A stretch of 64,000 nucleotides of DNA from Parvibacter caecicola (GCF_003725335.1 NZ_QIBY01000007.1:50719-114718), one strand, 5' to 3'. Shown: positions 37,151-58,196, counted from the first letter of the stretch. Notes: a model not told the origin generated them from the sequence alone. Program-made: numbers and translations.

Positions 37151-37171
37151 CTACTCCCACTCAACCGCATC
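37151..37171 (-). other. Remnant copy of the guaA 3' end (encodes ...AVEWE-stop); candidate att core of an integrative element
   Basis: The reverse complement of CTACTCCCACTCAACCGCATC reads DAVEWE*. It is homologous to the guaA terminus at 56604 and to the copy at 44801. Confidence 0.5.
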
Positions 37172-37254
37172 AAGCAGCCCTTTTTGTATTATGGGCACTA
37201 TCATTTCCATCTCGTGCTTCATCGTCCAACTCTTGTGCTCTGGTTTCAGTATCG

Positions 37255-37512
37255 TTTTGAACTCACTTCAAAGAAGTCGAGAAGGACTTAAATCCTGGAA
37301 TAAAACCAAGGAGCAGATCCTGGTTCTCTGAACTGGGATTTTATTATATCCGGGAATGTTTTGAGTTCAGGATTCCGGGTACATCGTCTCGAACCCTCGA
37401 AAATTTACGCGACAGGAATAGTTCAGGAATAAACACAACCCTTGGGAGTAAATCGCTGACCAGCAGAAATGTGAAACCCTGAGTTCAAAGTGAGTTCAAA
37501 TTGAGTTCAGGG
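37255..37512. repeat. Cluster of TGAGTTCAAA-type direct and inverted repeats (three tandem copies at 37480-37512, others at 37361 and 37258); candidate integrase arm-type sites
   Basis: Repeats seen directly in the sequence, adjacent to the 37151 att-like copy. Confidence 0.45.
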
Positions 37513-37573
37513 AACGTGAGGGCAATTACGGGCAAGCCAGCCGCTACTAGTCCTGTTGGCCTGAATGAGATAA

Positions 37574-38142
37574 TTGAAGCCTGATGTCCCGAGTGGCTTC
37601 TCGCATCAGAAGCAAACGTCGGAGACGCCGAATACAGCTCCCGGAGGATCAAAAGGCATGAACCATAGCAACGACCGCTACATCACGAACACATTGAGGC
37701 GTCGGGGGCGCGTTTGCAATGTTCTCCTCGGGTTGGCTTTGGTGATTCTGCTATCGTCCATTTTCACGTCCCCGCCGAGGTGCCGCTGCAGTGGGGAGCT
37801 GACGGTGATGTTGATGCTTATGGGTCTCCATGGCTGACGCTCATCGTGTGGGCCGTCCTTGCCGCCGTCGTCGCTTTGCGCAGGCTCGTCGTTGCAAATG
37901 TTGACGTGCGGTACTGGAACAAGCCGCCTAAAATACAACCATCTGAATTGGACGATTGGTATGCCCACAGCATGAGTGTCACGTACAACGTGTGCTTGAT
38001 GATTTCCGTTGTGGCTCTGGGAGTGGCATTGATCTATATGCTTCGCATCTATTGGCTAATGTTTCCCTTCATCGTCATAGCCGCTCTAGCTGTGATCGCG
38101 TACAGCGTATATGCAAACTCTAATCGGAGCAAAGACTCCTAG
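37574..38142 (+). pseudogene. DUF1648/SdpI-like membrane protein gene with a frameshift near 37740-37770
   Basis: The N-terminal TM helix (NVLLGLALVILLSS) is in frame 2. The DUF1648 core (IVHFHVPAEVPLQWGADGDVDAYGSPW) plus the C-terminal TMs are in frame 1 (ORF 37714..38142). Confidence 0.5.
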
Positions 38143-38151
38143 CCATCAGCA

Positions 38152-38183
38152 AGACCTACGTGGACAAATTGTCCACGTAGGTA
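38152..38183. repeat. Perfect 14-bp inverted repeat ACCTACGTGGACAA / TTGTCCACGTAGGT (hairpin or operator)
   Basis: Seen directly, between the DUF1648 pseudogene and the toxin-antitoxin promoter. Confidence 0.5.
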
Positions 38184-38212
38184 TGACCTGGTGTTTCTTC
38201 TGCAAAACTAAA

Positions 38213-38253
38213 TTGATATTGACTAAGTGTATATCATAGTATACAATCTGTGT
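38213..38253 (+). promoter_or_regulatory. Sigma-70-like promoter (TTGACT-17-TACAAT) overlapping the TGTATA..TATACA palindrome upstream of the toxin gene
   Basis: -35 TTGACT at 38219-24 and -10 TACAAT at 38242-47. The ATG at 38254 lacks an SD, so the mRNA may be leaderless. Confidence 0.5.
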
Positions 38254-38553
38254 ATGTTGGAGATTCTGCAGACAGATGAATTCATCAAATGGATGAAGCG
38301 GCTTCGAAATGCCGATGCTAGAGCGCGCATCAACGTGCGAATCCGCAGGATCTCGCTCACGGGGAACTTCGGCGATACGAAGCCCGTCGGTGACGGAGTC
38401 TACGAGCTGCGCATCGACTACGGACCCGGGTACCGCGTGTACTACTCCCAACACAGAAGCGAGGTTGTCCTGCTGCTCATCGGCGGGGACAAGTCCTCGC
38501 AGCAGAAGGACATCGACAAGGCCAAAAGACTCAATGCGGAATACGAAGGATAG
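38254..38553 (+). CDS. Type II toxin, RelE/ParE superfamily (HigB-like addiction-module killer protein)
   Basis: MLEILQTDEFIKWMKRL...GVYELRIDYGPGYRVYY...LLLIGGDKSSQQKDI, typical of the addiction-module killer family. Confidence 0.72.
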   Translation: MLEILQTDEFIKWMKRLRNADARARINVRIRRISLTGNFGDTKPVGDGVYELRIDYGPGYRVYYSQHRSEVVLLLIGGDKSSQQKDIDKAKRLNAEYEG

Positions 38554-38562
38554 AGGACGATC

Positions 38563-38844
38563 ATGAAGACGGCTACGAAATGGGATGCCTCCGAATACTT
38601 GGAGACCGAAGAGGACATGGCGGCCTACTTGAACGCCGCGCTCGAGGATGGCGACACCTCCGTGGTTGCCGCCGCCCTCGGCGATATCGCACGAGCAAAG
38701 GGAATGACCCAACTCTCCAAGGAGACCGGTATCACCAGAGACGGGCTCTACAAGGCATTGTCTCCTACAGGGAACCCGTCGTTTGATACGGTGCAAAAAG
38801 TCGTTAAAGCGTTTGGGCTTAAGCTTGATGTTGCTACTGCGTGA
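38563..38844 (+). CDS. HigA-family antitoxin (HTH addiction-module antidote protein)
   Basis: 93 aa reading ...AAALGDIARAKGMTQLSKETGITRDGLYKAL. It lies 9 nt after the toxin stop. Confidence 0.72.
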   Translation: MKTATKWDASEYLETEEDMAAYLNAALEDGDTSVVAAALGDIARAKGMTQLSKETGITRDGLYKALSPTGNPSFDTVQKVVKAFGLKLDVATA

Positions 38845-38938: not shown

Positions 38939-41900
38939 ATGGAAGTAGCCTCGACGCTTGTCTCACTTGCCAGCAAATTAGGCCTGTCAAGCTTATTGGA
39001 TAAAGTCAAAAAATGTAAAAAGAACAGGAAGCTACATCAGATTCGAGAAGATTATCTAACTAGGTCTACATTTGTATCATTCCAACAAGCGCCTCTTTCA
39101 GATTTATTTCAAAATAATGCTTTGTGCGAAGAGCTAATTGCCCATTGTCGCAAAGGCGACTTAGCAAAATCCGCAGTAGTTAATACTTTTCTTTACTCTT
39201 CAAAAGAGGCCCCCTCCGAAGGGCGCTTCTTTGATGCGGAAAAGCTTGTAGGTAATTTTTTTGATGAAGTGGCTGCCGTAATATTCCAGCCAATTGACAA
39301 AAAAGACGAACCCCTTTCTGCAGCGATACAAGAAGGCATCGCCGAAACCAGAGAACTTCAGTCTGACGTTCAGCAGAGCTATAAACAAATGGAAGCGAAG
39401 GTTGATGCTCTAACGGCATCTTTGACAGAGCAACTTGGCTTCTCTTCGCTGACGTTACTCATAAATGCAGTAGAAGACGGGTCGGTTTTGTTTGCCGATT
39501 TCGAATCTGCAGTTGAGACCGATAAAAGTAATAGTGTTTCAGGCAAATATCTTTCTGTATACCTCTCTCTATGTAAAGGTGAAAACCCATGCTTTGATAT
39601 ATCGGACTTCAAGGTCATTGGAACTCCTCTTGCTTCCTCACTGGCTTCGTTGGCAATTTCGACAGGGCAATTGAACACCGCCGTCTGCGTTCTTGGCCTC
39701 TATGACGAAGGAGCCAATTGCGCTAAGGCTGTTGGGGAGATTATTAATAATCCAAATATCGATGAAGAAACGAATCGATATGAGATTGCCGCAGATTCCC
39801 CTTTCTCGCCTTTTGCATGCGTTTTGAATGCCGAGCTCGCATTCATGAACAAAGCCTACGTAATTGCAGACGATCAATTCGCATTGTGCGAAGGGCGACT
39901 TAATCCAGTAGCAAAATGTCATAGTGACATTTCACGCATATGCAAAGCAATGCAGTATTCATTGACTTCTATTTCTCCTGATGACGTAAGGAACTTTGCC
40001 GGGGATTTCCCACTGTGGGGTAGCACATCGCTAAAACATGAATATGGAGAAATCCTTGAAGTTGCTCTTGATCTGATTGGCGAAACAAGTGCAGCGGAAA
40101 TCATTTCGTCTCTTCCTGAGGAAGCGCTGCAACACTTGCCAAACGCACAGCTTCAAGCAGAGATAAGCACGTGCGACGATATCGATAGATTGAGACACTT
40201 ATGCGAAAAGTCGTTGATAAAGCAGCTTTTCCCTGCATTCTTTACATGCGCAGAAGAACTTATATCCAAAGATCCCTCTTGCACGTTGTGGTTAAAACAA
40301 CTGGTAGAGAAGGAGGCTGAGAATGTTTTGGTCAGCAACTTTCTTTTCTTCCTCTTCTATGTCGATAAATTGAATCCATGCGTCTCTTATGAAGAGTACA
40401 AGTACCATGAAAGCTGTTACAGAAATGACCCTCGATTTCATCTGCATGCATACAGGCTGTTTAAGAGCAGCAACCCCGAAGAGGCCTGCAGCCATATCGA
40501 AATGGCACTAAGTCTAATGGCCGCAGGGCAGACATTACCGTGCCCAGACTATTCGAGAGAATGGGTTTGCTATCTTCATGAAAACGAACGTGACTTTCAG
40601 GTGATCGACCTAGTCAGACGATTCGCACCCGTAATTCCCGCAAGGGCTTTCAAGTCAATCGCATTTGCTATAGAAGAACCGTTAGATAAATCGGTTCTCG
40701 CAAGAGAGCTCTTCGAGTTGCTGGAGCAATCGGAGAACGATGATCCGGAGCTGACATGCTTGCTTGCGCAGTATCATGGATTTGTTGCAAATGATCAGCT
40801 TAAAGCGCTCAAGTTCGCAAAGCTATCCTTCAAAAAGCGCCCCTCTCTCGACGCAGCACGGTCCCTGGTTTATGCATCACTTGGCTTATCGTTAGGCATC
40901 CCCGAAGAAGTTGAGCAGTATGCTCTCAATCAAAAGAGCACAGAGCTCGACATGCTCATCGCCGAGCATTACCGGAGAGAGAAAAAGGACTCAAAAGCAG
41001 ATTATCTTTTAAAGCGAGCTATTTTTGATAATAGACCAGACTCCCACCGCGCAATTGCCGCATACGGCTGCAGCCATTTGAGCGATGCCGAGAAAGAGAA
41101 ACCAACTAAGATTGACCACAATACCTGCGCATGCTTGGAAAACAAGGAATCGGGACAGCTGGTCGTAGCTTTTCACTCGGAATCTGATTTGATTCCGAGT
41201 GAAGGAGTTAATGCTCTCGGGATGCAGAACTACACAACAGCATCTCCCCAATATCTTGCAATGCGAGATCATGCCGTTGGAGATCGCGTGCAACTTGGCT
41301 CAGAGTACTGGGAAGTTGTAGACGTAAACAACGTAGATGACGTCATCGGAAAAAAGACCATGGAGATAATCGCAGAAGACCCCTCAACGGTGGTCTTCTC
41401 TTCCCCTGATGGAGACATCGAAGATGTGATTCGGCAAATCTCTGAATACATGGAAGAGCACAAACAGCAGAGCAACGTTTATTCTGACGGCATTCGAGTT
41501 AACGATGGCACAGTTGTTTTTCTGGGGATCGAGACAGGGTGTGCGCTCTACCCCATCAAGCCATTTGAGTTTATCCTAAATGTGCTCAAAGGGGATGATG
41601 TCCCATTTCGGAGAATAGAAATAGGCTTTTCTTCTCCCATGACAGGGGAAGAGACGTTTCTTCTCTCTTATAATGCCATCGTTCTTCTGGCTGCTCTTGA
41701 AGAGCTAGGCGTCGACTGTGACCCAATCATGAGTCGTTGCAGCATTACCACATCAACGAAAAAACGTCTGCAGCTAGACATTCAAGATTATTCTGATTCG
41801 TTATACGGCGCTGGGAAAATGGTTTCAGTCGATGGACGCGCCACTCTATTGCAGTATGACGCTGCAGCCAAGCAAGAACTGAGCGCAATTTGCGCAAATA

Positions 41901-42280
41901 CATTAGGCTTTCTTAACAAATTGAGACAAGTTGAACTTGCTCAGATCGATAAGCTTCCTTCAAGTTTCCCGTTTCTTGACCAGAATACGCTAGGCGACAT
42001 GGAAACGGCAAGACAAGGTGGGATGTTTTATGTGACAGAAGACTGTTTTCAGGCGCTTTTCTCTGATATTTCCGAATCCGCCCCTCAGAGATGCAGTCTG
42101 TACAGTCTTCTTATTGCACTCGGAATGAGGGAAGCCGCCCTGTTTGCACTTCCGAAAGCAATGCACCAGTGGGGAGCCGATCCGTATGTTGATGTCAATG
42201 TTGCTAACGTGGTAATTCAGATTCTTGAGTCGTTTACGCAAGGCGCCGGAAGCCCCATACCAAATGAACAAGATACGTAA
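38939..42280 (+). CDS. Large hypothetical protein (1113 aa), AT-rich, predicted alpha-helical
   Basis: Long uninterrupted ORF at about 42% GC in a high-GC genome. No Walker A motif and no recognisable catalytic motif. Confidence 0.5.
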   Translation: MEVASTLVSLASKLGLSSLLDKVKKCKKNRKLHQIREDYLTRSTFVSFQQAPLSDLFQNNALCEELIAHCRKGDLAKSAVVNTFLYSSKEAPSEGRFFDAEKLVGNFFDEVAAVIFQPIDKKDEPLSAAIQEGIAETRELQSDVQQSYKQMEAKVDALTASLTEQLGFSSLTLLINAVEDGSVLFADFESAVETDKSNSVSGKYLSVYLSLCKGENPCFDISDFKVIGTPLASSLASLAISTGQLNTAVCVLGLYDEGANCAKAVGEIINNPNIDEETNRYEIAADSPFSPFACVLNAELAFMNKAYVIADDQFALCEGRLNPVAKCHSDISRICKAMQYSLTSISPDDVRNFAGDFPLWGSTSLKHEYGEILEVALDLIGETSAAEIISSLPEEALQHLPNAQLQAEISTCDDIDRLRHLCEKSLIKQLFPAFFTCAEELISKDPSCTLWLKQLVEKEAENVLVSNFLFFLFYVDKLNPCVSYEEYKYHESCYRNDPRFHLHAYRLFKSSNPEEACSHIEMALSLMAAGQTLPCPDYSREWVCYLHENERDFQVIDLVRRFAPVIPARAFKSIAFAIEEPLDKSVLARELFELLEQSENDDPELTCLLAQYHGFVANDQLKALKFAKLSFKKRPSLDAARSLVYASLGLSLGIPEEVEQYALNQKSTELDMLIAEHYRREKKDSKADYLLKRAIFDNRPDSHRAIAAYGCSHLSDAEKEKPTKIDHNTCACLENKESGQLVVAFHSESDLIPSEGVNALGMQNYTTASPQYLAMRDHAVGDRVQLGSEYWEVVDVNNVDDVIGKKTMEIIAEDPSTVVFSSPDGDIEDVIRQISEYMEEHKQQSNVYSDGIRVNDGTVVFLGIETGCALYPIKPFEFILNVLKGDDVPFRRIEIGFSSPMTGEETFLLSYNAIVLLAALEELGVDCDPIMSRCSITTSTKKRLQLDIQDYSDSLYGAGKMVSVDGRATLLQYDAAAKQELSAICANTLGFLNKLRQVELAQIDKLPSSFPFLDQNTLGDMETARQGGMFYVTEDCFQALFSDISESAPQRCSLYSLLIALGMREAALFALPKAMHQWGADPYVDVNVANVVIQILESFTQGAGSPIPNEQDT

Positions 42281-42360: not shown

Positions 42361-42450
42361 ATGACAGCATACAAAGACGAGAAGCGCGGGACCTGGTTCG
42401 CGAACTTCAGGTACAAGGACTGGAGGGGTGAACCTCAGCGAAAGGGGTAA
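42361..42450 (+). pseudogene. Tyrosine integrase N-terminal remnant (29 codons) truncated at the IS256-family insertion
   Basis: MTAYKDEKRGTWFANFRYKDWRGEPQRKG aligns with the N-terminus of the intact integrase at 48249 (SKDRERGTFYVQCRYKDWTGEPKKK). The stop lies inside the IS inverted repeat. Good SD. Confidence 0.6.
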
Positions 42451-43780
42451 CGTACAATCTCTTGCGCACTTTGACAGCAGCATAGTCTAGATACCAAAAG
42501 ACACGGCTCTGGCCTTCGGTATGATTTGAGTGTCGAATTCAATCATGCTAGGAGGCTGAGCCATGTCCGATCCCATCGTATCATTCGACGAGGCCGCCAT
42601 GCGCGGCGAGCTCAAAGAACTCGTCCGCCAGACGGTCGAGGACACCCTGAACGCGCTTCTCGAGGAGGAAGCCGACGACCTCATAGGCGCAGACCGCTAC
42701 GAGAGGACGGCCGACCGCGAGGCGTACCGCGCCGGCCACTACGAGCGGGGGCTCACCACCACATCGGGGCAGGTCATACTGAAGATGCCCAAGCTCAAGG
42801 GCATGAGGTTCGCAACGGCGATCATCGAGCGCTACAGGCGCCGGGAGACCTCCGTGGAGGAGGCCATGATCGAGATGTACCTGGCCGGGGTGTCCACCAG
42901 GCGCATCGAGGACGTCTCCGAGATACTCTGGGGCTCGTCGGTGTCCGCCGCCACCGTGTCCAATCTCAACGAGAGGGCGTTCGAGGCCGTCGAGGAGTGG
43001 AGGAGCAGGCCGCTGACCCGCCCCTACCCCTACGTCTTCGTCGACGGCATCTACCTCAAGCGCTCCTGGGGCGGCTCGTTCGAGAACGTGGCCGTGATGG
43101 TGGCCATAGGCGTCAACGACGACGGCTACCGCGAGGTGATAGGCGCCGCCGAGGGCTTCACCGAGTCCGCCGAGTGCTGGCGGGAGTTCCTCTCGTGGCT
43201 GAAGGGCCGCGGCCTCTCCGGCGTGCGCATGTTCACCGGCGACAAGGCCGCCGCCATGACCGGGGTCATCGCCGAGGTGTTCCCAGAGGCTGCCTATCAG
43301 CGCTGCACGGTGCACTTCTACCGCAACGTCCTGGCCAAGGTGCCGAAATCAAAGAGGAGCCAGGTGGCGGCCATGCTCAAGGCCATCCACTCCCAGGAGT
43401 CGCTGGAGGCCAGCATGGAGAAAGCCAGCGACGTCGCCGCCAAATTGGACGGCATGAGGCTGGCGGCGGCAGCCAAGTGCGTTCGCGACGGCATCGCGGA
43501 GACGCTGACCTACACGCGCTTTCCAATGCGGCACTGGCGTCGTATCCGCACCAACAACGCCATAGAGAGGCTGAACCGCGAGATCCGCCGCCGCACGCGA
43601 GTGGTGGGCACGTTCCCCGACGGTAAGAGCGCCCTCATGCTGGTGATGGCCAGGCTCAAGTACGTGGCCGACAGCGAGTGGGGATCGAGGAGGTACCCGG
43701 ACGTGTCGCTGCTGGGCGAGTGATCATGCCGACGGCTGACCGCCGGCTGCTGGAATTTGCGCAAGAATCTGGACAGTACC
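42446..43780 (+). mobile_element. IS256-family insertion sequence, about 1.33 kb
   Basis: Imperfect terminal inverted repeats GGTAACGTACAATCTCTTGCGCAC..CAGCAGC (left) and GCTGCTGG..TGCGCAAGAATCTGGACAGTACC (right) flank a mutator-type transposase. GC content is higher than in neighbouring DNA. No target-site duplication was found. Confidence 0.75.
42563..43723 (+). CDS. IS256-family (mutator-type) transposase
   Basis: 386 aa with family signatures YERGLTTTSGQVILKMPKLKG and FPEAAYQRCTVHFYRNVLAKVPK. Confidence 0.9.
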   Translation: MSDPIVSFDEAAMRGELKELVRQTVEDTLNALLEEEADDLIGADRYERTADREAYRAGHYERGLTTTSGQVILKMPKLKGMRFATAIIERYRRRETSVEEAMIEMYLAGVSTRRIEDVSEILWGSSVSAATVSNLNERAFEAVEEWRSRPLTRPYPYVFVDGIYLKRSWGGSFENVAVMVAIGVNDDGYREVIGAAEGFTESAECWREFLSWLKGRGLSGVRMFTGDKAAAMTGVIAEVFPEAAYQRCTVHFYRNVLAKVPKSKRSQVAAMLKAIHSQESLEASMEKASDVAAKLDGMRLAAAAKCVRDGIAETLTYTRFPMRHWRRIRTNNAIERLNREIRRRTRVVGTFPDGKSALMLVMARLKYVADSEWGSRRYPDVSLLGE

Positions 43781-43887: not shown

Positions 43888-44673
43888 CTACAAACGCTGA
43901 CATCTTGCAGGCTGCTTAATAGCTTTTTCAATTTGAGGAGTGATGCAGTTCACAGCTTCTAAGAGCTGCGAGCGAAAGTCATCCAGGCTCTTTTGACCAT
44001 ATATGGCCAGAATGGCGCATTCGACTTCATCACCGAATTCATTCCCTATGGAAGCTACTTCGTTGAACAATTCGTCGATTTCGACGACAAGCTCTCGATC
44101 CAGTTCGTCAACCTGTTGACTAGATGCATAGAATGTGGATTGGCAGTCCAGCTCGATAATTTGCGTTCTGCATTTCAGCATTTCACACATGCAATTTAGA
44201 CGATAAATTCTAGGGTCCAAATTCATAGCCATACTGCGTAATTTATTTAGTGAACCAACCTTTTTCTTGCTAAGAAAAAGGTTATCGTCGATTTCAGTGC
44301 AGATAAGATTCGCGTAGTGCATACCCGGGCCATTAATACAGCTCAAACATGGCGCAAAGAGCTTTGGAGGTATTTTGTATTGACGTGCAAATTCAAACGA
44401 TATAATCAACTGCTTCAAGCATCCCGAGAAGGCTATGCAAAGCTCAAAGAGCATGACTTTTTGTTTTCGTAACCCAATTTTTAGCTCACACAATGATGTT
44501 GCAACGGCCAAGAAAGCACCTGAAATAAAACCCGTTAACAGTCCTAGAATACAGCTATAGTACCGGTCATCAAGAGATAAGAGCGGCAACAATAGCATGG
44601 CAACAATTCCCAGTCCTCCAATTGCCATGCAGATGAATAATGTATATCTACGCGTTTTCAAGTTGGTCCTCAA
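43888..44673 (-). CDS. Hypothetical membrane protein
   Basis: 261 aa with N-terminal TM helices. AT-rich. Confidence 0.4.
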   Translation of the reverse strand: MRTNLKTRRYTLFICMAIGGLGIVAMLLLPLLSLDDRYYSCILGLLTGFISGAFLAVATSLCELKIGLRKQKVMLFELCIAFSGCLKQLIISFEFARQYKIPPKLFAPCLSCINGPGMHYANLICTEIDDNLFLSKKKVGSLNKLRSMAMNLDPRIYRLNCMCEMLKCRTQIIELDCQSTFYASSQQVDELDRELVVEIDELFNEVASIGNEFGDEVECAILAIYGQKSLDDFRSQLLEAVNCITPQIEKAIKQPARCQRL

Positions 44674-44800: not shown

Positions 44801-44823
44801 CTATTCCCACTCGATGGCGTATC
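44801..44823 (-). other. Remnant copy of the guaA 3' end (encodes ...YAIEWE-stop); candidate att core marking the left end of the guaA-proximal element
   Basis: The reverse complement of CTATTCCCACTCGATGGCGTATC reads YAIEWE*. It matches the guaA terminus at 56604-56624 at 15 of 18 positions. Confidence 0.55.
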
Positions 44824-44948
44824 TTTGTCTTTCGTTTCAATAGATGCGTTAGCAGATCATCTCGTTTACCGTATATATCTAAATTACATCAAACGTGGTA
44901 CTCATAGAGCACTCAGGGGCACTTCTTGCTCTGCAAAGAAGCGTTTTT

Positions 44949-45266
44949 TCAACTTTCCCGTTTAGAAAGACCCAACGAATTCATCCTTGATTGGACTCTG
45001 CTCAATTCAGTATTTAACTGTGTAACGTATGCCGCACATACCTCTCCATAAAGATCATGCACGCGTTCTTCTGGAATATCAGCAACGACCTGAATATCTT
45101 CATTGACCATCTGCGCTAGAAGTGCATCGAAGACGCTCTTTACTTGCTCCTCGTTGGTCTCGTCATCTAAATTCAAATCTTGATCTGCTCCCCCAATATT
45201 GAAGCGAAGAATATTATTTCCATTTTCTCTTTGAGTAAGCACCGCTTTAACAACTTGCACTGTCAT
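44949..45266 (-). CDS. Small hypothetical protein downstream of the Ppl-like gene
   Basis: ORF overlapping the 3' end of the Ppl-like gene. No motif. Start uncertain. Confidence 0.25.
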   Translation of the reverse strand: MTVQVVKAVLTQRENGNNILRFNIGGADQDLNLDDETNEEQVKSVFDALLAQMVNEDIQVVADIPEERVHDLYGEVCAAYVTQLNTELSRVQSRMNSLGLSKRES

Positions 45267-47370: not shown

Positions 47371-47376
47371 TAATTC

Positions 47377-49364: not shown

Positions 49365-49378
49365 GAAAGGAGATCCAG

Positions 49379-49759
49379 ATGTCAGAGAAGAACCTGGATG
49401 CGCACGGCAGGCAGCGAAGCAAGACAATCTCGTTTCGCATGTCGCCCGAAGAGGCGAACCTGCTCGATAACCTCGTTGCCATTAGTGGGCAGAAGAAACA
49501 GGACTACATTATCCGGAAGCTGCTCGACAGAAGAATCGTCGTCGTGCCATCAAGCCGCATGCAGAAGGGCATGGAGGAGGCAATGATGCTCGTCTATCGC
49601 GAGCTGACAAGGCTGACGAATTGCGCCGACGCCACGCCGGAGCTAATAGCGCTCACGGACAGCGTTGCCACGATCTTCGCTGGGTTTAGCGAGAAGTCCA
49701 CCAATATCCAGCTGGCAAGCGACGAAAGCGCCATCAAGAATCTGAAGAGGGAACCGTAA
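49379..49759 (+). CDS. MobC-like / ribbon-helix-helix mobilisation accessory protein (putative)
   Basis: The segment KTISFRMSPEEANLLDNL resembles relaxosome accessory proteins. Confidence 0.45.
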   Translation: MSEKNLDAHGRQRSKTISFRMSPEEANLLDNLVAISGQKKQDYIIRKLLDRRIVVVPSSRMQKGMEEAMMLVYRELTRLTNCADATPELIALTDSVATIFAGFSEKSTNIQLASDESAIKNLKREP

Positions 49760-50769
49760 TGCGACAGCTGACAGCAAGAACAGCCCAAGAGTTACTGGAA
49801 GACCCCATCGAGGAAGCGGACTGGGTCATCGAGGACTTGCTGCCTGTGGGAGCGCATATACTGGCTGGCGCACCCAAGATTGGAAAGTCCTGGATGGTGC
49901 TCGCTATGGGGCTTGCCGTGAGCATGGGCCAACCGTTCTGGGACTATACGGTATGCCAAGGAGCGGTTCTCTACCTCTGCCTTGAAGATACGTATTCCCG
50001 AGTTAAAAAGAGGTTATGGAAGCTAACAGACGAGGCTAACGACAGGTTCTACCTTGCCAACTCGGCAGCCACGATCAAGGACGGCCTGGCGGCGCAGATC
50101 GAGTATTTCGTCATTACCCATCCAGACCTGAAACTCGTGTTCATCGACACGTTCCAGAAGGTTCGAAGCCCAACCGGCGACAGCATCTATGCTGCCGACT
50201 ACAGCGACTTCTCGGCACTGAAGGCGATTGCCGACAAGCACGGTCTGGCGATGATGGTGGTGCACCATACTCGCAAGATGGCAGACGAGGACGTCATGAA
50301 CACTGTATCGGGTTCGAGCGGAATCACGGGCAGTGCGGACAGCATCTGGGTACTGAGGCGAGCGTCGCGTGGCGTTGGGGACGCGACGCTCACGGTTACC
50401 GGACGAGATGTGGAGTTTCGAGAGCTGAAACTTGCGCTCAGGGATTGTCGTTGGAACCTTATCGAGCGCACGAGCGAGGAGGAGTTTGAGGAACGGGACG
50501 TGCCCGACTGCGTACTGAAGGTGGTCGAGTTCATGGCGTTAAGCACAAATGGGTCATGGCAGGGCTCCGTCGGAGACCTGATCAAGGCAGCAGGGGCCGA
50601 GGGAGTGACCACCGCGACGTTTGGCAAGTTCCTCGCACAGCACAGTGTCTTCATGAGGTCGCGCGGGATTGTCTACAGCAAGAAGCACACCAGCGCCGGG
50701 CAGCAGATCACTCTAGAGAAGACCGCCTGTGAAAGAAGTGAAGGCGATGAAGGCTGCGCTCGGGTATAG
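49759..50769 (+). CDS. AAA-family ATPase (RepA/DnaB-like, primase-associated type found on integrative elements)
   Basis: Walker A GAPKIGKSW and Walker B LVFIDTF. Confidence 0.65.
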   Translation: MRQLTARTAQELLEDPIEEADWVIEDLLPVGAHILAGAPKIGKSWMVLAMGLAVSMGQPFWDYTVCQGAVLYLCLEDTYSRVKKRLWKLTDEANDRFYLANSAATIKDGLAAQIEYFVITHPDLKLVFIDTFQKVRSPTGDSIYAADYSDFSALKAIADKHGLAMMVVHHTRKMADEDVMNTVSGSSGITGSADSIWVLRRASRGVGDATLTVTGRDVEFRELKLALRDCRWNLIERTSEEEFEERDVPDCVLKVVEFMALSTNGSWQGSVGDLIKAAGAEGVTTATFGKFLAQHSVFMRSRGIVYSKKHTSAGQQITLEKTACERSEGDEGCARV

Positions 50770-51131: not shown

Positions 51132-51746
51132 ATGGACTATGGATATGCACGAGTCTCCGCGAAAGATCAAAGTCTCGCAAGACAGCTTGATGCGCTACGA
51201 GAGCTCGGCTTGGACGACAGTGCGATCTTCACCGATAAGGCGAGCGGGAAGGATTTCAACCGTCCCTCCTATCGCCAGTTAATGCGAAGACTCAAGCCGG
51301 GTGATGTGATCTTCGTTAAATCGATAGACCGGCTGGGACGCAACTACCAAGAGATAATCGCAGAATGGCGAAACATCACGCAGAAGAAAGGCGCGCATAT
51401 CGTCGTGCTCGATATGCCGCTACTCGATACACGAAACGACAAAGGCGAGATCACGAGCGTCTTCATCACTGATGTGGTGCTTCAACTCCTCTCCTATGTC
51501 GCGCAAGTTGAACGCGAGAATATCAAGCAAAGACAGGCTGAGGGAATAGCGTCTGCAAAGGCGCGTGGAGTTAGGTTCGGACGACCTAAGATCGAACGGC
51601 CGGGCATTTATCTCAAGACGAAGCGCGCCTATGAAAATGGAGCCATCACCCGAAAAGAGGCGGCTGACCGTCTGAAGATAAGCATAACTACTTTCGATAA
51701 CTGGATGAAAGAGGACAGGAAAGCATTGCTGAGCGAGACCGCCTGA
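51132..51746 (+). CDS. Serine recombinase (resolvase/invertase family)
   Basis: YARVSAKDQSLARQ catalytic-serine motif. Resolvase fold and C-terminal HTH. SD AAAGGAGCC. Confidence 0.9.
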   Translation: MDYGYARVSAKDQSLARQLDALRELGLDDSAIFTDKASGKDFNRPSYRQLMRRLKPGDVIFVKSIDRLGRNYQEIIAEWRNITQKKGAHIVVLDMPLLDTRNDKGEITSVFITDVVLQLLSYVAQVERENIKQRQAEGIASAKARGVRFGRPKIERPGIYLKTKRAYENGAITRKEAADRLKISITTFDNWMKEDRKALLSETA

Positions 51747-51917: not shown

Positions 51918-53039
51918 TTGAATCTTATAGATGTGATCAAATACGAAGGTGATAACAAAACCTTTGTTTGGAAATATCCCGAAGAGGATTTTAATACTGG
52001 TTCTCAACTCATAGTCCATGAAGCGCAAGAGGCTATTTTCTTCTTAAATGGAGAAGCGCTCGATTCGTTTAAACCTGGCAGATACGAGCTAGAGACCCAG
52101 AACATCCCGTTATTAAGTAAAGTTATAAACATTCCATCAGGAGGCGAAAGCCCATTTCATGCTGAGGTCTACTTCATAAACCTCGTAGAACAAATGGGTA
52201 TAAGCTGGGGAACAAACTCAAAAATCCAGTTTATGGAACCAGAGTTCAATTTTCCTCTTTCAATTGGCGCATCAGGAGAGATGGCAATTGCTGTCAGAGA
52301 GCCTAAGAAACTCCTCCTAAAAATTGTGGGTACTGAAGCAATTCTTTCACAAGAAGAGTTAATCAAATACCTTAAGTCCTTTCTTCAGACGAGGATAAAA
52401 GCTGCCATAGCTCAGGCGATACCCGAAAACTCGCTCTCTATTTTCCAAATGGATGCACAGCTAGTTCTTTTATCAGACGAAGTAAAAAAGCACCTTCAGC
52501 CCGACTTCAAAGAATACGGCCTGGAGCTTACTCAAATGATGATTACGACAATCGTTAAGCCCGAGGGCGACCCCATTTATGAGCAATTTAAGGAGCTGTT
52601 TTTTCGGCAGTATGCGGATGTAAAAAACGCTCAGATCAACCAGCAAGTTGGCGTGATTAACCAGGAGACGGCAGCTAAACAGACAGTTATTGAGGCCAAG
52701 GGGGTCGCAGAAAAGCGCCAAATTGAAGGATATACCTATCAACAAGAACGTGGATTCGACGTGGCGGAGCAAATGGCTCAAAACGAAGCGGTTGGTGAAT
52801 TCGCGAATATGGGAATAGGCCTTGGGCTGATGTCAGGAGTGGGCGGCACTATGGGATCTGTAGTTGGGGGCGCGGTTTCTGAGGCAATCGGAGAGAACCA
52901 ACTGTTTGGAGGTTCTATCTATCCCGGCGTCGCCTCGCCTGATACCGAAGGATCCTTGCCTCAATTTTGCCCGAATTGCGGCAAACAATTCTCATCAAAT
53001 GACAATTTTTGTCCTCAATGCGGGAATAAGAGGGGCTAA
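51918..53039 (+). CDS. SPFH/band-7 domain protein with C-terminal double zinc ribbon
   Basis: TTG start after GGGAG. SPFH-like N-terminal half, and a CPNCGKQF...CPQCGNK zinc-ribbon C-terminus. Confidence 0.7.
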   Translation: MNLIDVIKYEGDNKTFVWKYPEEDFNTGSQLIVHEAQEAIFFLNGEALDSFKPGRYELETQNIPLLSKVINIPSGGESPFHAEVYFINLVEQMGISWGTNSKIQFMEPEFNFPLSIGASGEMAIAVREPKKLLLKIVGTEAILSQEELIKYLKSFLQTRIKAAIAQAIPENSLSIFQMDAQLVLLSDEVKKHLQPDFKEYGLELTQMMITTIVKPEGDPIYEQFKELFFRQYADVKNAQINQQVGVINQETAAKQTVIEAKGVAEKRQIEGYTYQQERGFDVAEQMAQNEAVGEFANMGIGLGLMSGVGGTMGSVVGGAVSEAIGENQLFGGSIYPGVASPDTEGSLPQFCPNCGKQFSSNDNFCPQCGNKRG

Positions 53040-53044
53040 AAAGT

Positions 53045-53710
53045 ATGGAAAACAAAGCAACCCGCACTACAATAATTGCTCTAATAGTTGGATTCGCAGT
53101 TTATTTCTTAATATGTATGCTGCTTTTTGAGGCATCGTTTTCGTTTTGGGCTGAGCTCGGCTTCGCCTTAGTCGCATTTGCAGCCTGCGCCTTTGTAATA
53201 CTCAAACAAAAACAAACACCGAGATTCTTCCTCAAACTGCCCATTTATACAGTTGCCGCCGCATATCTGATAGGCCAATTGATTGTAAGCACGCTATTTA
53301 TGATTTACCCAACCCTCTGCAATCCTTGGGGATATGCAATAAGCATTCTCCTATTTGGCGGTTTTCTTTGCGTTGCCTTGACAAGCCAAGCATCGACTGA
53401 ACATATCGCTTCTATTGATTCCCAAATCAATGAAGATACTTCCTTTATTAAAAATCTGGTAATGCATCTCGAAGCTCTGAAAGAAACGCTTCCTAATAAT
53501 CAGGATTGCGTTAACGAGCTTATTGCAATAGCTCAGTTCTCTAACCTGCGGTCATGCAAGAAGGCTCAGCCGGTGGAACAAATTATTCAAGCCCATATCA
53601 ATGAGCTCTTAGCTGATGCAAAAGCAGGAAAAACTGAAGCTCTTGATAGTCGCTGTGATGAATTGAAGAAACTTCTTCAACAACGCGACCAGTTATGTAT
53701 ACGAAAGTAG
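53045..53710 (+). CDS. Hypothetical membrane protein (4 TM) with cytoplasmic coiled-coil tail
   Basis: Begins 5 nt after the SPFH gene stop. Confidence 0.5.
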   Translation: MENKATRTTIIALIVGFAVYFLICMLLFEASFSFWAELGFALVAFAACAFVILKQKQTPRFFLKLPIYTVAAAYLIGQLIVSTLFMIYPTLCNPWGYAISILLFGGFLCVALTSQASTEHIASIDSQINEDTSFIKNLVMHLEALKETLPNNQDCVNELIAIAQFSNLRSCKKAQPVEQIIQAHINELLADAKAGKTEALDSRCDELKKLLQQRDQLCIRK

Positions 53711-53717
53711 GGCGATT

Positions 53718-53957
53718 ATGAATCATGCCAAATGGCTAGAGCAGGCAAGGCAATACTTAGATACCAATGTCAAAGTTGGTCAAACATTTGAATGCAAATC
53801 ACTATTTCCTGAGCACAAATGGAATCAGCTAACACGAGGCGAAAGAATCAGTTTCGGACAATACTTTGCTAATGAGGTCAAAGAGGGACGCATTCCTGGC
53901 GTAATACGTATCGATCGCGCAAAGAATAATCACAGTATTTATAAAAAGGACAACTAA
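53718..53957 (+). CDS. Small hypothetical protein, DUF1413-like
   Basis: 79 aa. Resemblance to DUF1413 (FECKSLFPEHKWNQLTRGERISFGQYF) is tentative and recalled from memory. Confidence 0.35.
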   Translation: MNHAKWLEQARQYLDTNVKVGQTFECKSLFPEHKWNQLTRGERISFGQYFANEVKEGRIPGVIRIDRAKNNHSIYKKDN

Positions 53958-55267
53958 TGAAAGCTATACAGTGTGAATTATGTGGTGCAACAGACATTGT
54001 CAAAGACGGAGACTTTTTTGTTTGCCAAAGCTGCGGGATGAAATATACACCTGAAAACGCAAAGAAGATGATGGTAGAGGGAGTTGTTCAGGTCGAAGGA
54101 ACAGTCAAGGTTGATAATACTCAGCAAATCGAAAACTTCTTATCCTTAGCAAGAAAGGCGCATGATTCAGATAATGAAAAAGAAGCTGAAGACTACGCAA
54201 ACAAAGTTTTAGAGATAGAGCCGACAAACTATGAAGCTCTCTATCTAAAGGGGATTGCAGCTGGTTGGCAAACTACTGGTGGCAACAATAGAATTCCAGA
54301 AGCAATTGACTACTTCTCTCAAGCGATTGCCAATTGTTCCGAAGATGCAAATGCAGATGAGCTGAAAAAGCAGATCGCAGAAGATATTAGCAAGCTTTCA
54401 TTGGCGATGATTAATCTACGCTGCAAGAATTATATTCAATTCCCATCTTCAGAAAACGCTTCCTCAATAGTCACAGAAGCAGCTAACTCCATTATTCTAA
54501 CGATGAAGCTCATTCTATCATGTGGAGTAGAACCAAATAAATTCAAGGCTGATGCAGCCTTGGTAATGAACGCCGCTGCCGTACAAGCCTGGAAGACAAT
54601 ATGGTCAGACTACACCGACGACAAACCGTTGTTGCCTCTTGGAAATGGCATCATGTTTCAAGACTACAAAACTGCCTCATCCAGCGATCGCTCACTATAT
54701 GCCATCCCCTCTAAATATGACTGGAACAGATTTACCGACCGTGGAGATGGGTGCATTTCAGTAATTGAAGCAGCGATCAATATTGACGACAATGATGATG
54801 AAGAGGATATAACTAGGTATGAAAACCTCATATTTATTGCCGAAAAGGTACGAGATTCCTGTTCAATCGGGTATATCTCGGGGAGTCAATACGTTAGTGC
54901 AAAATGGGCAAAAGAATACGCATTTACCGATTCTGCAATCGCTGCGCGAAATAAGAAAATAGCCGAATGGCAAAGCGCTAAGGCTGACTCGGAACAACGA
55001 ATACGCCAGAACAGAATCAATAAATACTGGGATGCGCATCAAGAGGAACGAGCTAGTCTTGAAGCTTCGATAAAACAGCTTAAGGAAGATCTGATTAAGC
55101 TAAAAAGTGATGAGCAGTATTCGGCGACCAAGGCAAAGATTTCTTCTCTTTCAGGCGAAATAGAAATAAAAGAGAAGCAACTTAGTGCGTTGGGAATCTT
55201 GGATCGCAAAGCAAAGAAAGAACTAAAAAGCGAGATTGAGTCTTTGAGAAGCGAAAAGATAACTTAG
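53957..55267 (+). CDS. Zinc-ribbon plus TPR-like repeat protein with C-terminal coiled coil
   Basis: N-terminal CELCG...CQSCG zinc ribbon, then a TPR-like region (EALYLKGIAAGW). TAATG 1-nt overlap with the upstream gene. Confidence 0.5.
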   Translation: MKAIQCELCGATDIVKDGDFFVCQSCGMKYTPENAKKMMVEGVVQVEGTVKVDNTQQIENFLSLARKAHDSDNEKEAEDYANKVLEIEPTNYEALYLKGIAAGWQTTGGNNRIPEAIDYFSQAIANCSEDANADELKKQIAEDISKLSLAMINLRCKNYIQFPSSENASSIVTEAANSIILTMKLILSCGVEPNKFKADAALVMNAAAVQAWKTIWSDYTDDKPLLPLGNGIMFQDYKTASSSDRSLYAIPSKYDWNRFTDRGDGCISVIEAAINIDDNDDEEDITRYENLIFIAEKVRDSCSIGYISGSQYVSAKWAKEYAFTDSAIAARNKKIAEWQSAKADSEQRIRQNRINKYWDAHQEERASLEASIKQLKEDLIKLKSDEQYSATKAKISSLSGEIEIKEKQLSALGILDRKAKKELKSEIESLRSEKIT

Positions 55268-55403
55268 TAAAAAAGAACAAATCGAAAGAAGACGGTATTA
55301 ATGACAAAGAAAAAGAGCTGGCGAGATGCAAGTCAAGACTGGAAAATCCGATAGCGTGACATCCCTCATTGTTGCCAATGCCCCAGCCTCCTCTGCGACA
55401 ATG

Positions 55404-56132
55404 CTAGATCGCAACGCTGCAAGGCGCGGGATTGTTAGCAACAAAGTCGCTAACAGAGCACTGATCGAGCTGCCCCTCGTACACGTAATTACACGCTGCG
55501 GGTTCTAACTGAGAAAAGAGCACAACCGCATCTTGGCATGCTTGCAAAGTCGAGCGGCTCATCCCCTCAGACGCAAACAGATGCTCATGGTGTGCCGCGC
55601 GATTACGCACGTTGTTGATCCCTGCAATCTTGCGATTTACTATGTCTCTTGATGCGCCTTTCGGCCAAACAGAATGTATGGACGGGATCCAAAGGTCACG
55701 TTCATGGCTCCTGTCAGTCATATGCGCCCAGAACCCCAAGGTTAGATTCGAGATGACTTTATCAGGAGGAGGGTTGTGCCCTAGATTTCCCGCCAAATGG
55801 TCGATTGCATTGCGATTGAGTCGATTGGCATCTTTGACCTTTCCCCGCTTGTTGGTTCGAAGAATCGGACGCCTTACCGGTGAAGCATCATCGAACAGCC
55901 AGTGCTTGTTCCCACTCCAAGTAGCTGAAATGGCCCTATCGTAAGCATTTCGAAGAGCGACCTCAAAGAATGAGACATCCCTAAGTACGGCTTGCGCTAA
56001 CCCGATGTTCCAGAGATACAGATCGAGTGCGAGGTTATCATCGTTCTTGGCGATTTCTAGATACCTCTTGTATCGGGGCGCAGAAAGCCAAGCTTCTATA
56101 TCGGATCTATTGATACTTGGGGAATCCGCCAT
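55404..56132 (-). CDS. Abi_2-family (AbiD/AbiF-like, HEPN-type) abortive-infection protein
   Basis: Conserved INNVRNRAAHHEHLF (Rx4-6H HEPN motif), typical of Abi_2 family proteins. Confidence 0.72.
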   Translation of the reverse strand: MADSPSINRSDIEAWLSAPRYKRYLEIAKNDDNLALDLYLWNIGLAQAVLRDVSFFEVALRNAYDRAISATWSGNKHWLFDDASPVRRPILRTNKRGKVKDANRLNRNAIDHLAGNLGHNPPPDKVISNLTLGFWAHMTDRSHERDLWIPSIHSVWPKGASRDIVNRKIAGINNVRNRAAHHEHLFASEGMSRSTLQACQDAVVLFSQLEPAACNYVYEGQLDQCSVSDFVANNPAPCSVAI

Positions 56133-56298
56133 GCTCGCCTTCCGTATGTAATAATTGAGCCCCGGCGACTTGAATCAGCGGTCGTCCCGGGGCTATCTGA
56201 AACGTATTCTACTACACCGTTTGCTATTCATGCCGCAAAACGAAGTATTCGCCACCAAATTTGCATCTGCAAAACGGCCTTTTCTTTAGCTCGGTTAT

Positions 56299-56365
56299 TT
56301 GAGTACAAGATGAGTACAAATGCGATAAATCGATTCCACTGCTGATAGTTGCGTGAGTACAAAGT
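56299..56365. repeat. Three TGAGTACAA(A/G) direct repeats near the guaA-proximal element end; candidate integrase arm-type sites
   Basis: Copies at 56300, 56311 and 56355, seen directly. The motif is related to the TGAGTTCAAA repeats at 37480-37512. Confidence 0.45.
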
Positions 56366-56603
56366 TGATAGGCTTCGCGTAATGCAAGCTTAAGCTCACA
56401 TTATCGTGATGATTTGATCTCGCTCTTAATGCCTATGAACCAATTAAGCATTGGTTGACCATGAGAAATGCTCTCTCAGTAGCCACTAAGAGAGCATGTT
56501 AGGAAACGATGGTTCAGATGGCTTGGAGGCAACTGCGAATCGCTTTAGCACACCAAATCGCGCCAAAATGCACACAAACCAAGCCTCACGATAATGTGTG
56601 CGA

Positions 56604-58196
56604 TTATTCCCACTCAATAGTCGCGGGCGGCTTGGAGGTGATGTCGTAGACCACTCGGTTCACGCCGGGGACTTCGGCCACTATGCGGCCGCTTACGCGG
56701 GCCAGCACGTCATAGGGCAGGCGGGCCCAGTCGGCGGTCATGGCGTCGCTGCTCTCCACGGCACGCAGGATCACCGGGCGCGCATAGGTGCGCTCGTCGC
56801 CCATCACGCCCACGCTCTTGATGTCCGGCAGCACCGCGAAGTACTGCCACACGCTATGCTCGCTGTTGCGCTCCCCCGTCTCGGCGAACAGCCGCTCGTT
56901 GTAGGCGTCCAGCTCCTCGCGCACAATCGCGTCGGCGTTCTTCAGAATCTCCAGCTTCTCCGGCGTCACATCCCCAATGATGCGGATGGCCAGCCCCGGC
57001 CCCGGGAACGGCTGGCGATGCACGATGTAGTCCGGCAACCCCAGCGCCGTGCCCAGCGCCCGCACCTCGTCCTTAAAGAAATGATCCAGCGGCTCAATCA
57101 AATCGAAATGCACGCCCTCCGGGAACGGAATAAGGTTGTGGTGGCTCTTGATGGTGCTGGCCTTCCCGCCGGTCTTGCGCGCGCCGCTCTCGATGATGTC
57201 CGGGTAAATGGTGCCCTGGGCCAGATACTTCACGCCGTCCAGCTCCTCGGCCACGGCGAAAAACTCCTTCCAGAACTGCGTGCCGATGATCCGCCGCTTC
57301 TCCTCTGGCTCGGTCACCCCCGCCAGCAGCCGCATATAGCGCTCCTCAGCATGCACGTGAATGAAGTCCACATCGAACTGCTTGGTGAAAACCTCTTCCA
57401 CCTCTTCCGGCTCGCCCTTGCGCAGCAGCCCGTGATTCACGAACACGCACACCAGCTGCTTGCCGATGGCCCGCGCGCACAGCGCCGCCACCACACTGGA
57501 GTCAACGCCGCCGGACAGCCCCAAAATCACGCGGCTCTCCCCCACCTTCGCGCGGATGGCCGCCACCGAATCGTCGATGATGGAATCCATCGTCCAATCG
57601 GACACCAACCCGCAAATGCCGAACAGGAAATTCCTCAGCATGGTCTGGCCGAACTCGGTATGGCGCACCTCCGGATGGAACTGCGTGGCGAACAGTTTGC
57701 GCTCGGGGCACTCCATCGACGCCACCGGGCACACCTCGGTGCGCGACGTGATGGCGAAGCCCTCCGGCACCCGCGTCACCGCGTCGCGATGGCTCATCCA
57801 CACCGTCTGCTCGCCCGGCGTGCCGTCGAACAGCGCCGACTCGGCCGCCCGCATAATCACCGCCGGTCCGTACTCGCCCTTCTCGGTATGGCCCACTTCG
57901 CCCCCCAGAGCTACCGCCATGGCCTGCTGCCCATAGCAAAAGCCCAGCACCGGAATGCCCAGTCGCAGCACCTCGGGGTCGATGGAAGGCGCGTCCTCGG
58001 CGTACACGCTCGCAGGCCCGCCGGACAAAATAATGGCCGCCGGCGCCAGTGCCCGCACCTCATCGGCCGTGATGTCGCAGGGCACAATCTCGGAGTACAC
58101 GTGCAAATCACGCACGCGGCGGGCAATCAACTGCCCGTATTGGGCGCCGAAATCGAAAACGAGGACCTTCTGATCGGGCATAGCGGTTTGGCTCAT
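56604..58196 (-). CDS. guaA: GMP synthase (glutamine-hydrolysing)
   Basis: GATase domain (LVFDFGAQYGQLIARRV...CYGQQ), ATP-PPase SGGVDSSV motif, and C-terminus ...PPATIEWE. Start at MSQTAM with a GGAGGG SD. The ORF extends 36 codons further upstream. Confidence 0.95.
   Translation of the reverse strand: MSQTAMPDQKVLVFDFGAQYGQLIARRVRDLHVYSEIVPCDITADEVRALAPAAIILSGGPASVYAEDAPSIDPEVLRLGIPVLGFCYGQQAMAVALGGEVGHTEKGEYGPAVIMRAAESALFDGTPGEQTVWMSHRDAVTRVPEGFAITSRTEVCPVASMECPERKLFATQFHPEVRHTEFGQTMLRNFLFGICGLVSDWTMDSIIDDSVAAIRAKVGESRVILGLSGGVDSSVVAALCARAIGKQLVCVFVNHGLLRKGEPEEVEEVFTKQFDVDFIHVHAEERYMRLLAGVTEPEEKRRIIGTQFWKEFFAVAEELDGVKYLAQGTIYPDIIESGARKTGGKASTIKSHHNLIPFPEGVHFDLIEPLDHFFKDEVRALGTALGLPDYIVHRQPFPGPGLAIRIIGDVTPEKLEILKNADAIVREELDAYNERLFAETGERNSEHSVWQYFAVLPDIKSVGVMGDERTYARPVILRAVESSDAMTADWARLPYDVLARVSGRIVAEVPGVNRVVYDITSKPPATIEWE

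Follow-up and report, generated by a model that had tools for sequence, protein, structure and literature searches.

The stretch of DNA analysed here (the window) comprises 64,000 nucleotides of Parvibacter caecicola (NZ_QIBY01000007.1:50719-114718) and is 100% identical to contig JACHYA010000002.1 of GCA_014192485.1. It contains guaA, the gene for GMP synthase, on the minus strand; beyond the 3′ end of guaA lie, in this order, element A (44801-56615, ~11.8 kb), element B (37151-44812, ~7.7 kb), and a block of defence genes, block C (~23.6-37.15 kb). Similarity of GuaA places the organism in the Eggerthellaceae; the protein of Adlercreutzia muris is 93% identical. Protein families were assigned by using Pfam, PHROGs, and PADLOC scans. 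No tRNA genes were found in the 64-kb window, and an Rfam scan of the whole window gave 0 matches. An earlier note on this DNA had proposed that integrative elements accumulated in tandem at the 3′ end of guaA, leaving three collinear copies of the GuaA C-terminal codons plus stop on the minus strand, and that guanine-plus-cytosine (GC) content was lowered between about 23.6 and 56.6 kb. Both observations were confirmed: the three copies are present at 56604, 44801, and 37151, and GC content is 0.41-0.62 across ~24-56.6 kb, compared with 0.60-0.69 in the flanks.

The copy at 56604 (TTATTCCCACTCAAT on the minus strand) reads ...ATIEWE-TAA and closes guaA, that at 44801 (CTATTCCCACTCGAT) reads YAIEWE-TAG, and that at 37151 (CTACTCCCACTCAAC) reads DAVEWE-TAG. 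When all six frames of the 64 kb were scanned for [ED]W[ED]-stop strings, these three collinear copies were the only ones recovered. The degenerate string TCCCACTCRA was observed 3 times (0.20 expected; 0 of 100 shuffles, used as the null, reached 3), and the 15-mer YTAYTCCCAYTCRAY, with at most one mismatch, was also observed 3 times (0.04 expected). These patterns were defined post hoc, after the matches had been seen, and in a plain BLAST search of the guaA end against the window the internal copies ranked among many chance 10-11-mers; sequence statistics alone are therefore suggestive, not decisive, and the comparative evidence given below is the stronger argument. The case for the copies rests on their position, their frame, and the comparative data. 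Neither internal copy lies in a substantial conserved open reading frame (ORF), the open frame being ~9 codons at 44801 and 23 codons at 37151; the copies are thus not parts of conserved genes unrelated to guaA, an outcome that would have counted against the proposal.

Public contigs with and without element A allowed its boundaries to be compared directly. In a 56-kb ENA contig (L087), retrieved via the DRT4 protein, block B follows directly after guaA. Alignment of this contig with the window covered 58642-56605 and then 44817-42437, and the 16-bp overlap was the repeat itself. A-less guaA/B joints fell exactly at the core in L087, L240, and L243, and also in L248, which carries the window's own guaA allele. 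In the guaA sense, the guaA/B joint in L087 reads ...GCGACCATT-GAGTGGGAATAG-GTTAATGCG..., the guaA/A joint in the window reads ...GCGACTATT-GAGTGGGAATAA-TCGCACACATT..., and the A/B joint in the window reads ...ATACGCCATC-GAGTGGGAATAG-GTTAATGCG...; the restored guaA/B joint seen in L248 is ...AAGCCGCCCGCGACTATT-GAGTGGGAATAG-GTTAATGCGTGTTCATACGG.... Once the repeat copies and their flanks were aligned, the three joints formed a textbook triplet of attachment (att) sites, attB/attL/attR, sharing the 11-bp core GAGTGGGAATA.

Moreover, the same element was found behind other guaA alleles. In L231 the guaA part is 88.6% identical to the window and the element part 99.93%; in L236 the corresponding values are 87.1% and 99.65%, and in both contigs the switch in identity falls at the core. 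Four or more guaA alleles are followed by an unaltered proximal arm of A, which also occurs once after the arm of a foreign element (L238). In L252-L258 the distal arm of A meets, at the core, the proximal arm of a guaA element that is widespread and distinct from A, and in L250 it is joined to a 1.9-kb EamA/TetR block that ends in a further copy. A was also found without B or C in other hosts. The C terminus of GuaA was IEWE in every state examined. Taken together, these comparisons indicate that A is a discrete, intact, recently mobile insertion, and that it moved horizontally between hosts. For A, integration at the guaA 3′ end as put forward in the earlier note is borne out directly, both by the A-less joints at the core and by the presence of one element behind guaA alleles 11-13% divergent; the gene order is not the same everywhere, given that a site lacking A exists.

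Table 1. Features of the guaA-adjacent region of the window, from guaA outwards (positions count from the first letter of the window).
Feature	Position	Strand	Remarks
guaA (GMP synthase, 530 aa), live target	56604..58196	-	GATase, NAD_synthase, and GMP_synt_C domains; same 530-aa product called in public assemblies
attL core of element A	56604..56615	-	TTATTCCCACTC on + strand; GAGTGGGAATAA (E-W-E-stop) in guaA sense
P′ arm of A, non-coding	56133..56603		Three TGAGTACAA predicted arm-type sites (56300, 56311, 56354); 13-bp inverted repeat ACATTATCGTGA; identical behind four guaA alleles
13-bp inverted repeat ACATTATCGTGA, proximal arm of A	56397-56409 and 56586-56598		
Abi_2 / AbiD-like protein, cargo of A	55404..56132	-	
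Further cargo of A	51918..55267	+	SPFH/Band-7 with zinc ribbon (51918-53039), 221-aa protein, DUF1413 (53718-53957), uncharacterised 436-aa protein
Small serine recombinase (resolvase / DNA invertase) of A	51132..51746	+	
NikA-like protein and AAA_25 RepA/helicase-like protein of A	49379..50769	+	49379-49759 and 49759-50769; maintenance or mobilisation module
Tyrosine integrase of A, intact, 371 aa	48249..49364	+	Arm-DNA-bind_4, Phage_int_SAM_3, and Phage_integrase domains
71-aa ORF overlapping integrase start	48044..48259	+	Called in public assemblies; matches phrog_989 (unknown function)
XRE-type helix-turn-helix (HTH) regulator	47377..47865	-	Divergent from integrase operon
PDC-M49A-like ATPase (707 aa) and 105-aa partner, cargo of A	44949..47370	-	45247-47370, candidate defence; partner 44949-45266
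P arm of A	44816..44948		CATCTCGT at +57 from stop (44858); predicted inverted arm-type site TGAGTACCA at 44896
Hybrid core, A/B junction	44801..44812	-	CTATTCCCACTC; attR of A plus former guaA end of B; exact joint in A-less contigs
Uncharacterised 257-aa protein, guaA-proximal gene of B	43888..44661	-	
IS256-family insertion sequence	42446..43780	+	Mutator-type transposase (42563-43723); 23-nt imperfect terminal inverted repeats
Integrase remnant of B, 28 N-terminal codons	42361..42444	+	MTAYKDEKRGTWFANFRYKDWRGEPQRK; matches N terminus of A integrase
1113-aa protein, cargo of B	38939..42280	+	No match in any family library
HigB-like (Gp49) toxin and HigA-like (dnstrm_HI1420/HTH) antitoxin	38254..38844	+	
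DUF1648 membrane protein, cargo of B	37714..38142	+	
P arm of B, non-coding	37166..37713		CATCTCGT at +57 (37208); inverted site 37257; site 37362; tandem triple 37480/37491/37502, 11-bp period
Outermost core copy, B/C junction	37151..37162	-	CTACTCCCACTC
DRT type 4 defence reverse transcriptase	35573..37120	-	Pfam RVT_1; PADLOC Drt4 E 1e-202; start 30 bp from outermost copy
Defence operon	25158..35419	+	SNF2 helicase, DUF4391, type III methyltransferase (29011-31002), type III restriction enzyme (31003-34185), PDC-S54 (34187-35419)
Left edge of low-GC region	23617..25157		Includes 407-aa gene (23655-24878, -, GC 0.53); identity to other strain breaks at 23617

Element A carries an intact tyrosine integrase together with PDC-M49A-like and AbiD-like genes, in agreement with the earlier description of this block as one with an integrase and defence cargo. 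The integrase was found to be 45% identical, over 353 residues (full length; E 1e-105), to the integrase of Clostridium perfringens phage phi3626, and tblastn of the integrase against phi3626 gave E 1e-88. The catalytic motifs (GLRLGE, HDLRHSH, LGHE, and RYAHL) align between the two proteins. C. difficile phage integrases are similarly close, and related integrases occur in the temperate Clostridium phages phiMMP02 and phiCD505, and also in phi4J1. The annotated 12-bp attP of phi3626 (NC_003524.1), TTATTCCCACTC, is identical to window positions 56604-56615. It lies just 3′ of the phage integrase gene, past two tandem 11-bp repeats, and its orientation relative to the integrase gene is the same as in A. 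In a passage that cites Zimmer et al. 2002, guaA is given as the integration target of phi3626. The integration modules of phi3626 and A are thus alike in integrase homology, core, orientation, tandem 11-bp repeats between integrase and core, and guaA target. They differ in that phi3626 has a low-GC Firmicute as host and is a temperate siphovirus, complete at 33.5 kb, whereas A and B are without detectable phage structural genes, place ~7 kb of cargo between the integrase and the core, and reside in high-GC Coriobacteriia. A has the integrase domains, the homology, the core, and the frame-preserving guaA insertion of a phi3626-type module, and it does not have the structural genes of a prophage.

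The remaining genes of A gave further indications of its nature. The sole mobilisation-type protein recognised in A is the NikA-like accessory protein, and three A proteins match no known family. No capsid, tail, terminase, or lysin gene was found among the ORFs of A or B in the Pfam and PHROGs scans. The NikA-like/AAA_25 module also lies downstream of the integrase in L060, L072, and virome contig L260. L260 (MT836902.1, 4453-7999) and L259 (MT835780.1) are low-GC human faecal virome contigs, marked UNVERIFIED, that carry the same HTH/integrase/NikA-like/AAA_25 module; their integrases are 50-53% identical to that of A, and no guaA core is found within these contigs. The 71-aa ORF at the integrase start is a candidate excisionase or recombination directionality factor. 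One copy of ACATTATCGTGA begins 6 bp past the guaA stop and is kept in the related Collinsella element L060; this repeat may be a core-proximal protein binding site.

The string TGAGTWCAA occurs 7 times exactly in the window (0.47 expected), and 6 of the 7 fall in two clusters, at 56300/56311/56354 and at 37257(-)/37480/37491. The earlier note had placed such repeats near one junction of each block, and clusters are indeed found at 56300-56354 for A and at 37480-37502 for B. When up to one mismatch was allowed, the proximal arm of A had three direct sites, those at 56300 and 56311 being 11 bp apart and followed by that at 56354, and its distal arm had one inverted site ~95 bp from the core. 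Five TGAGTTCAR sites lie in the distal arm of B: one inverted at +106, one direct at +211, and three in tandem at +330. In both P arms CATCTCGT stands exactly +57 from the stop, and an inverted site follows at ~+100. When the B arm was compared with the arm of the island in Adlercreutzia sp. ZJ304 (L005), conservation was confined to the repeat sites, the core, and an ACGAGA motif, the rest of the spacer having diverged, and similarity ended at the core. TGAGTWCAA also occurs 270-350 bp downstream of the copies in L021, L023, L026, L033, and L036. Because this conserved footprint is accompanied by an arm-binding domain in the integrase, the best reading is that the repeats are predicted arm-type integrase sites.

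Element B also bears out the earlier description of its block as one with an integrase remnant and a toxin-antitoxin pair, namely the 28-codon remnant and the HigBA-like genes. No integrase sequence was found in B past the inverted repeat of the IS256-family element. In L087, 272 bp (4404-4675) that are absent at window 42444-42446 are present beside this insertion sequence, and the integrase remnant is longer (88 aa, with an Arm-DNA-bind_4 match), which suggests that B is still being eroded beside the insertion sequence. In its integrase 5′ end, HigBA, arm, and core, the outer part of B is collinear with the corresponding part of the guaA island of L005, and the integrase of the L005 island is also broken, at the same position. 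HigBA homologues 77-94% identical to those of B are present in the guaA islands of L001 and L005. B has kept both att cores (44801 and 37151) and the conserved P-arm sites and has lost integrase and transfer genes, as is expected of a cis-mobilisable element (CIME). Integration of B at the guaA 3′ end has strong indirect support from its truncated integrase and from its arm, which agrees motif by motif with the distal arm of the L005 island; B is best read as a decayed relative and probably a CIME-like remnant.

The left edge of the low-GC region was examined for a further copy of the guaA end. The earlier note had pointed to 23.5-25.2 kb as a boundary where a fourth copy might be sought; none was found there or elsewhere in the window. 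Within the window, neither the degenerate 15-mer (1 mismatch), nor the six-frame [ED]W[ED]-stop scan, nor tblastn of the last 100 GuaA residues detected one, and a search of 22.8-25.4 kb with an 8-mer core and 1 mismatch was likewise negative. A Logan contig from another strain (L081, SRR19086209) is 99.4% identical to the window up to 23617 and different beyond. Past this break, the 407-aa gene is present in L081 (1-2583) as a broken-up copy of 74% identity, and the SNF2/type III system is replaced by a type I HsdM-like methylase; the break indicates that the variable region starts at 23617-25157. No other genomic context for block C was found in public data beyond the species' own. Left-flank genes were not found within 10 kb of guaA in any of 80 species representatives, and the native neighbour of guaA is therefore not definable from related species. 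The left-flank PadR (19460-19780) and GNAT (20841-21392) genes have 61% identical homologues in guaA islands (L056 13259-13573 and L005 18498-18992); part of the high-GC left flank may be older island material whose composition has drifted to that of the host. In the right flank, a 412-aa protein (62627-63865, +) matches several baeRF (bacterial/archaeal release-factor-like) families, and a ThiF gene adjoins just outside the window (L105 gene table).

Extra guaA ends were then surveyed in 78 species-representative guaA loci of Coriobacteriia, for which 446 kb downstream and 753 kb upstream of guaA were scanned. Downstream there were 24 extra GARTGGGARTAR copies, all in sense orientation, in 21 of the 78 loci, with at least 2 extras in three loci; antisense copies numbered 0 downstream, and upstream there were 0 sense and 2 antisense copies. 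Integrase homologues were present downstream of guaA in 21 loci. As a background, 115 metagenomic guaA loci from unrelated high-GC taxa had 4 extra copies downstream and 0 upstream. A metagenome 26-mer from the guaA 3′ coding sequence was rejected as a probe for the species, being conserved across many high-GC taxa; 0 of 120 loci so recovered came from this species. Nested arrays that align from the core were also found, L031 corresponding to L024 plus a 2.8-kb unit and L035 to L031 plus a 7-kb unit. In addition, the guaA-adjacent element of A. muris (L002) sits, at 97.6% identity, behind a 7.5-kb element in Collinsella (L074). Across Coriobacteriia, the guaA locus is a frequent hotspot of defence cargo.

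Several side observations concern this hotspot. The EamA/TetR block of L250 (2489-4397), which follows A in another host and lies between two EWE-stop copies, is a minimal unit of a guaA array, made up of cargo alone. Another widespread guaA element (L012, 11579 and 11826; L007, L029, L037, L048, L058) has its integrase beside guaA and in the same direction, and has a second EWE-stop-like string, GAATGGGAGTAA, 246-247 bp past the live guaA stop, with flanks conserved across genera. Either a hitch-hiking mini-element or a secondary att site built into the element could account for this string. Metagenome-assembled contigs end within ~100 bp of the guaA stop or at the core in L014, L017, L019, L020, L032, L043, L049, L050, L051, and L073, as well as in Logan contigs L233 and L247, of which L247 begins exactly at the core; this suggests that the guaA hotspot routinely breaks Coriobacteriia assemblies. 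As a tentative and rather doubtful extension, the guaA stop might act throughout the class as an assembly line on which defence islands are put together, in which small elements with phi3626-type integrases and without recognisable relaxase or capsid genes move between species and stack newcomer-first; the L012-type pseudo-site could then seed accretion or the capture of neighbouring DNA.

We consider it highly probable (about 90%) that two related integrative elements stand in tandem at the guaA 3′ end, beside a low-GC defence block, C. The proposal of tandem accretion thus stands for two elements, directly for A and on strong indirect grounds for B, and the leftmost block is not established as an element. 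Under this two-element reading, a tyrosine integrase of the phi3626 family is, or formerly was, encoded by each element, which would move by lambda-type steps. The element would first circularise, and its integrase, bound at arm and core sites, would synapse attP with the guaA end; strand exchange would then take place within GAGTGGGAATA, which comprises the Glu-Trp-Glu codons plus stop and is identical in attP and guaA. A new stop codon and a new downstream arm would be brought in by the element, and the old gene end would be left at its far side. Because the element supplies its own stop and downstream sequence, GuaA would stay intact; because a newcomer targets the live guaA end, it would land between guaA and the resident and push the latter outwards. 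Only the live end has guaA coding sequence on its left, and if the integrase reads that side, newcomers would be expected to land proximal to guaA. A is in fact guaA-proximal to B here and to other elements in L250 and L252-L258; L238 indicates that the order can vary. A would then be the newcomer and B the decayed resident, whose integrase the IS256-family insertion and adjacent deletions would have stripped to 28 codons. For the excised circle of A, the predicted joint in the guaA sense is ...GAAACGAAAGACAAAGATACGCCATC-GAGTGGGAATAA-TCGCACACATTATCGTGAGG..., and that for joint excision of A and B is ...CCGCGACTATT-GAGTGGGAGTAG-ATTTACCGTAAATAAGGAG....

A number of observations weigh against the two-element array. 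The common core is short (11-12 bp), and A was not observed as an excised circle (attP junction). Relaxase, type IV secretion, and capsid genes went unrecognised in A in the Pfam and PHROGs scans. In the commoner related elements, e.g., L012, the orientation of the integrase relative to guaA is opposite to that in A, so that the orientation of the module is not fixed among related guaA elements. Among public contigs of the species, a guaA site lacking A was found, but neither a state lacking B nor a fully empty site; B is present in all public contigs that extend upstream of the DRT4 gene, and several contigs stop at 37273 or 37377. Apart from L081, all public contigs have C with the same left flank and always with B on its right, so that B and C are never apart, and C itself has no integrase remnant, arm-type sites, or distal guaA-end copy.

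The constant pairing of B and C, the short core, and the BLAST ranking of the internal copies among chance 10-11-mers are what would be expected if the region were a single 33-kb composite island, acquired once, in which the internal EWE-stop strings are inert relics or chance. We regard this as very improbable, and for A it is contradicted, given that the presence of A varies independently of B and C and its breakpoints fall precisely on the copies, that A occurs without B or C in other hosts, and that downstream copies are strongly enriched and strand-specific across the class. It is more conceivable, yet still doubtful, that three or more elements have accreted and that C is the oldest guaA element, its integrase and outer att copy having been eroded. 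C is mosaic and low in GC, begins 30 bp past the outermost copy, and carries defence cargo only; at the left end of C, the other strain carries a type I methylase together with a decayed form of the 407-aa gene; behind guaA in Slackia faecicanis (L009), the cargo includes a related type III restriction-modification system; and in related elements a gene can begin within 10 bp of the guaA stop (L005). With no att site and no integrase in C, nor a longer guaA 3′ remnant, and with C in one genomic context only in public data, C cannot be called a third accreted element, and the array is not shown to hold more than two.

How A and B travel is a separate question. A has its own integration module and flanking att repeats and no match to a type IV secretion family, which corresponds to an integrative mobilisable element (IME), and the most likely route of transfer would be mobilisation in trans as such an element, a route favoured by the NikA-like protein. 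A satellite lifestyle is conceivable in view of the phage-type integrase, the primase/helicase-like protein, and the unverified virome contigs. We nevertheless think it unlikely that A and B represent satellites of phages, or remnants of prophages, that spread by transduction instead of conjugative mobilisation. This alternative draws on an integrase family shared with temperate Clostridium phages (phi3626, phiMMP02, and phiCD505), on the match of the AAA_25 protein to phage primase/helicase PHROGs, on the module shared with the virome contigs, and on defence-gene cargo of the kind found in many satellites. It is opposed by the lack of capsid, terminase, or other structural or packaging genes in A and B, by a NikA-like family named after a mobilisation protein, and by an exact search for the A arm in 2.9 million viral contigs, which gave 0 matches. 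The gene order is also unlike that of classical satellites of the phage-inducible chromosomal island (PICI) type.

The two-element array provides a precisely mapped natural example of what is probably integrase-driven growth of a defence island in poorly studied gut Coriobacteriia. Its cargo and that of the adjoining block comprise the DRT4 reverse transcriptase, type III restriction-modification, PDC-S54, the PDC-M49A-like ATPase, the AbiD-like protein, and the HigBA-like pair. Both A-bearing and A-less states occur in nature, and the predictions of the att sites are exact; the integrase of phi3626 type, its 12-bp core, and the arm sites might furnish a tool for site-specific integration in Eggerthellaceae, a group that is difficult to engineer.

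Both guaA targeting and tandem accretion are already known, and conceptually nothing here is new. What is added is a well-delimited instance in Eggerthellaceae, a non-phage element family that uses the phi3626 core, a predicted arm-site architecture, and the Coriobacteriia hotspot of defence cargo. Site-specific tandem accretion of ICEs (integrative and conjugative elements) or IMEs with CIMEs has been described for ICESt1/ICESt3 at fda in Streptococcus thermophilus (PMC5704250). In that scheme, integration is followed by decay of the resident, which keeps its att sites and loses its integrase, and a newcomer then enters the att site that bears the gene end (PMC5704250). The same three steps would apply here, with A as newcomer and B as decayed resident; the target gene, the integrase family, and the host phylum are different. 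Other tyrosine-integrase elements at the guaA 3′ end include ATE-1 of Trueperella pyogenes, the Brucella suis IncP island, and ICE_SmiB6_guaA of Streptococcus mitis, and GIsul2 is also a guaA 3′-end island (PMC9376610). By target gene, and as described in the literature, all four resemble the present elements in occupying the guaA 3′ end with direct repeats of the exact gene end. They differ in carrying antibiotic or metal resistance, whereas the cargo here is phage defence, and ICE_SmiB6_guaA differs further in being self-conjugative.

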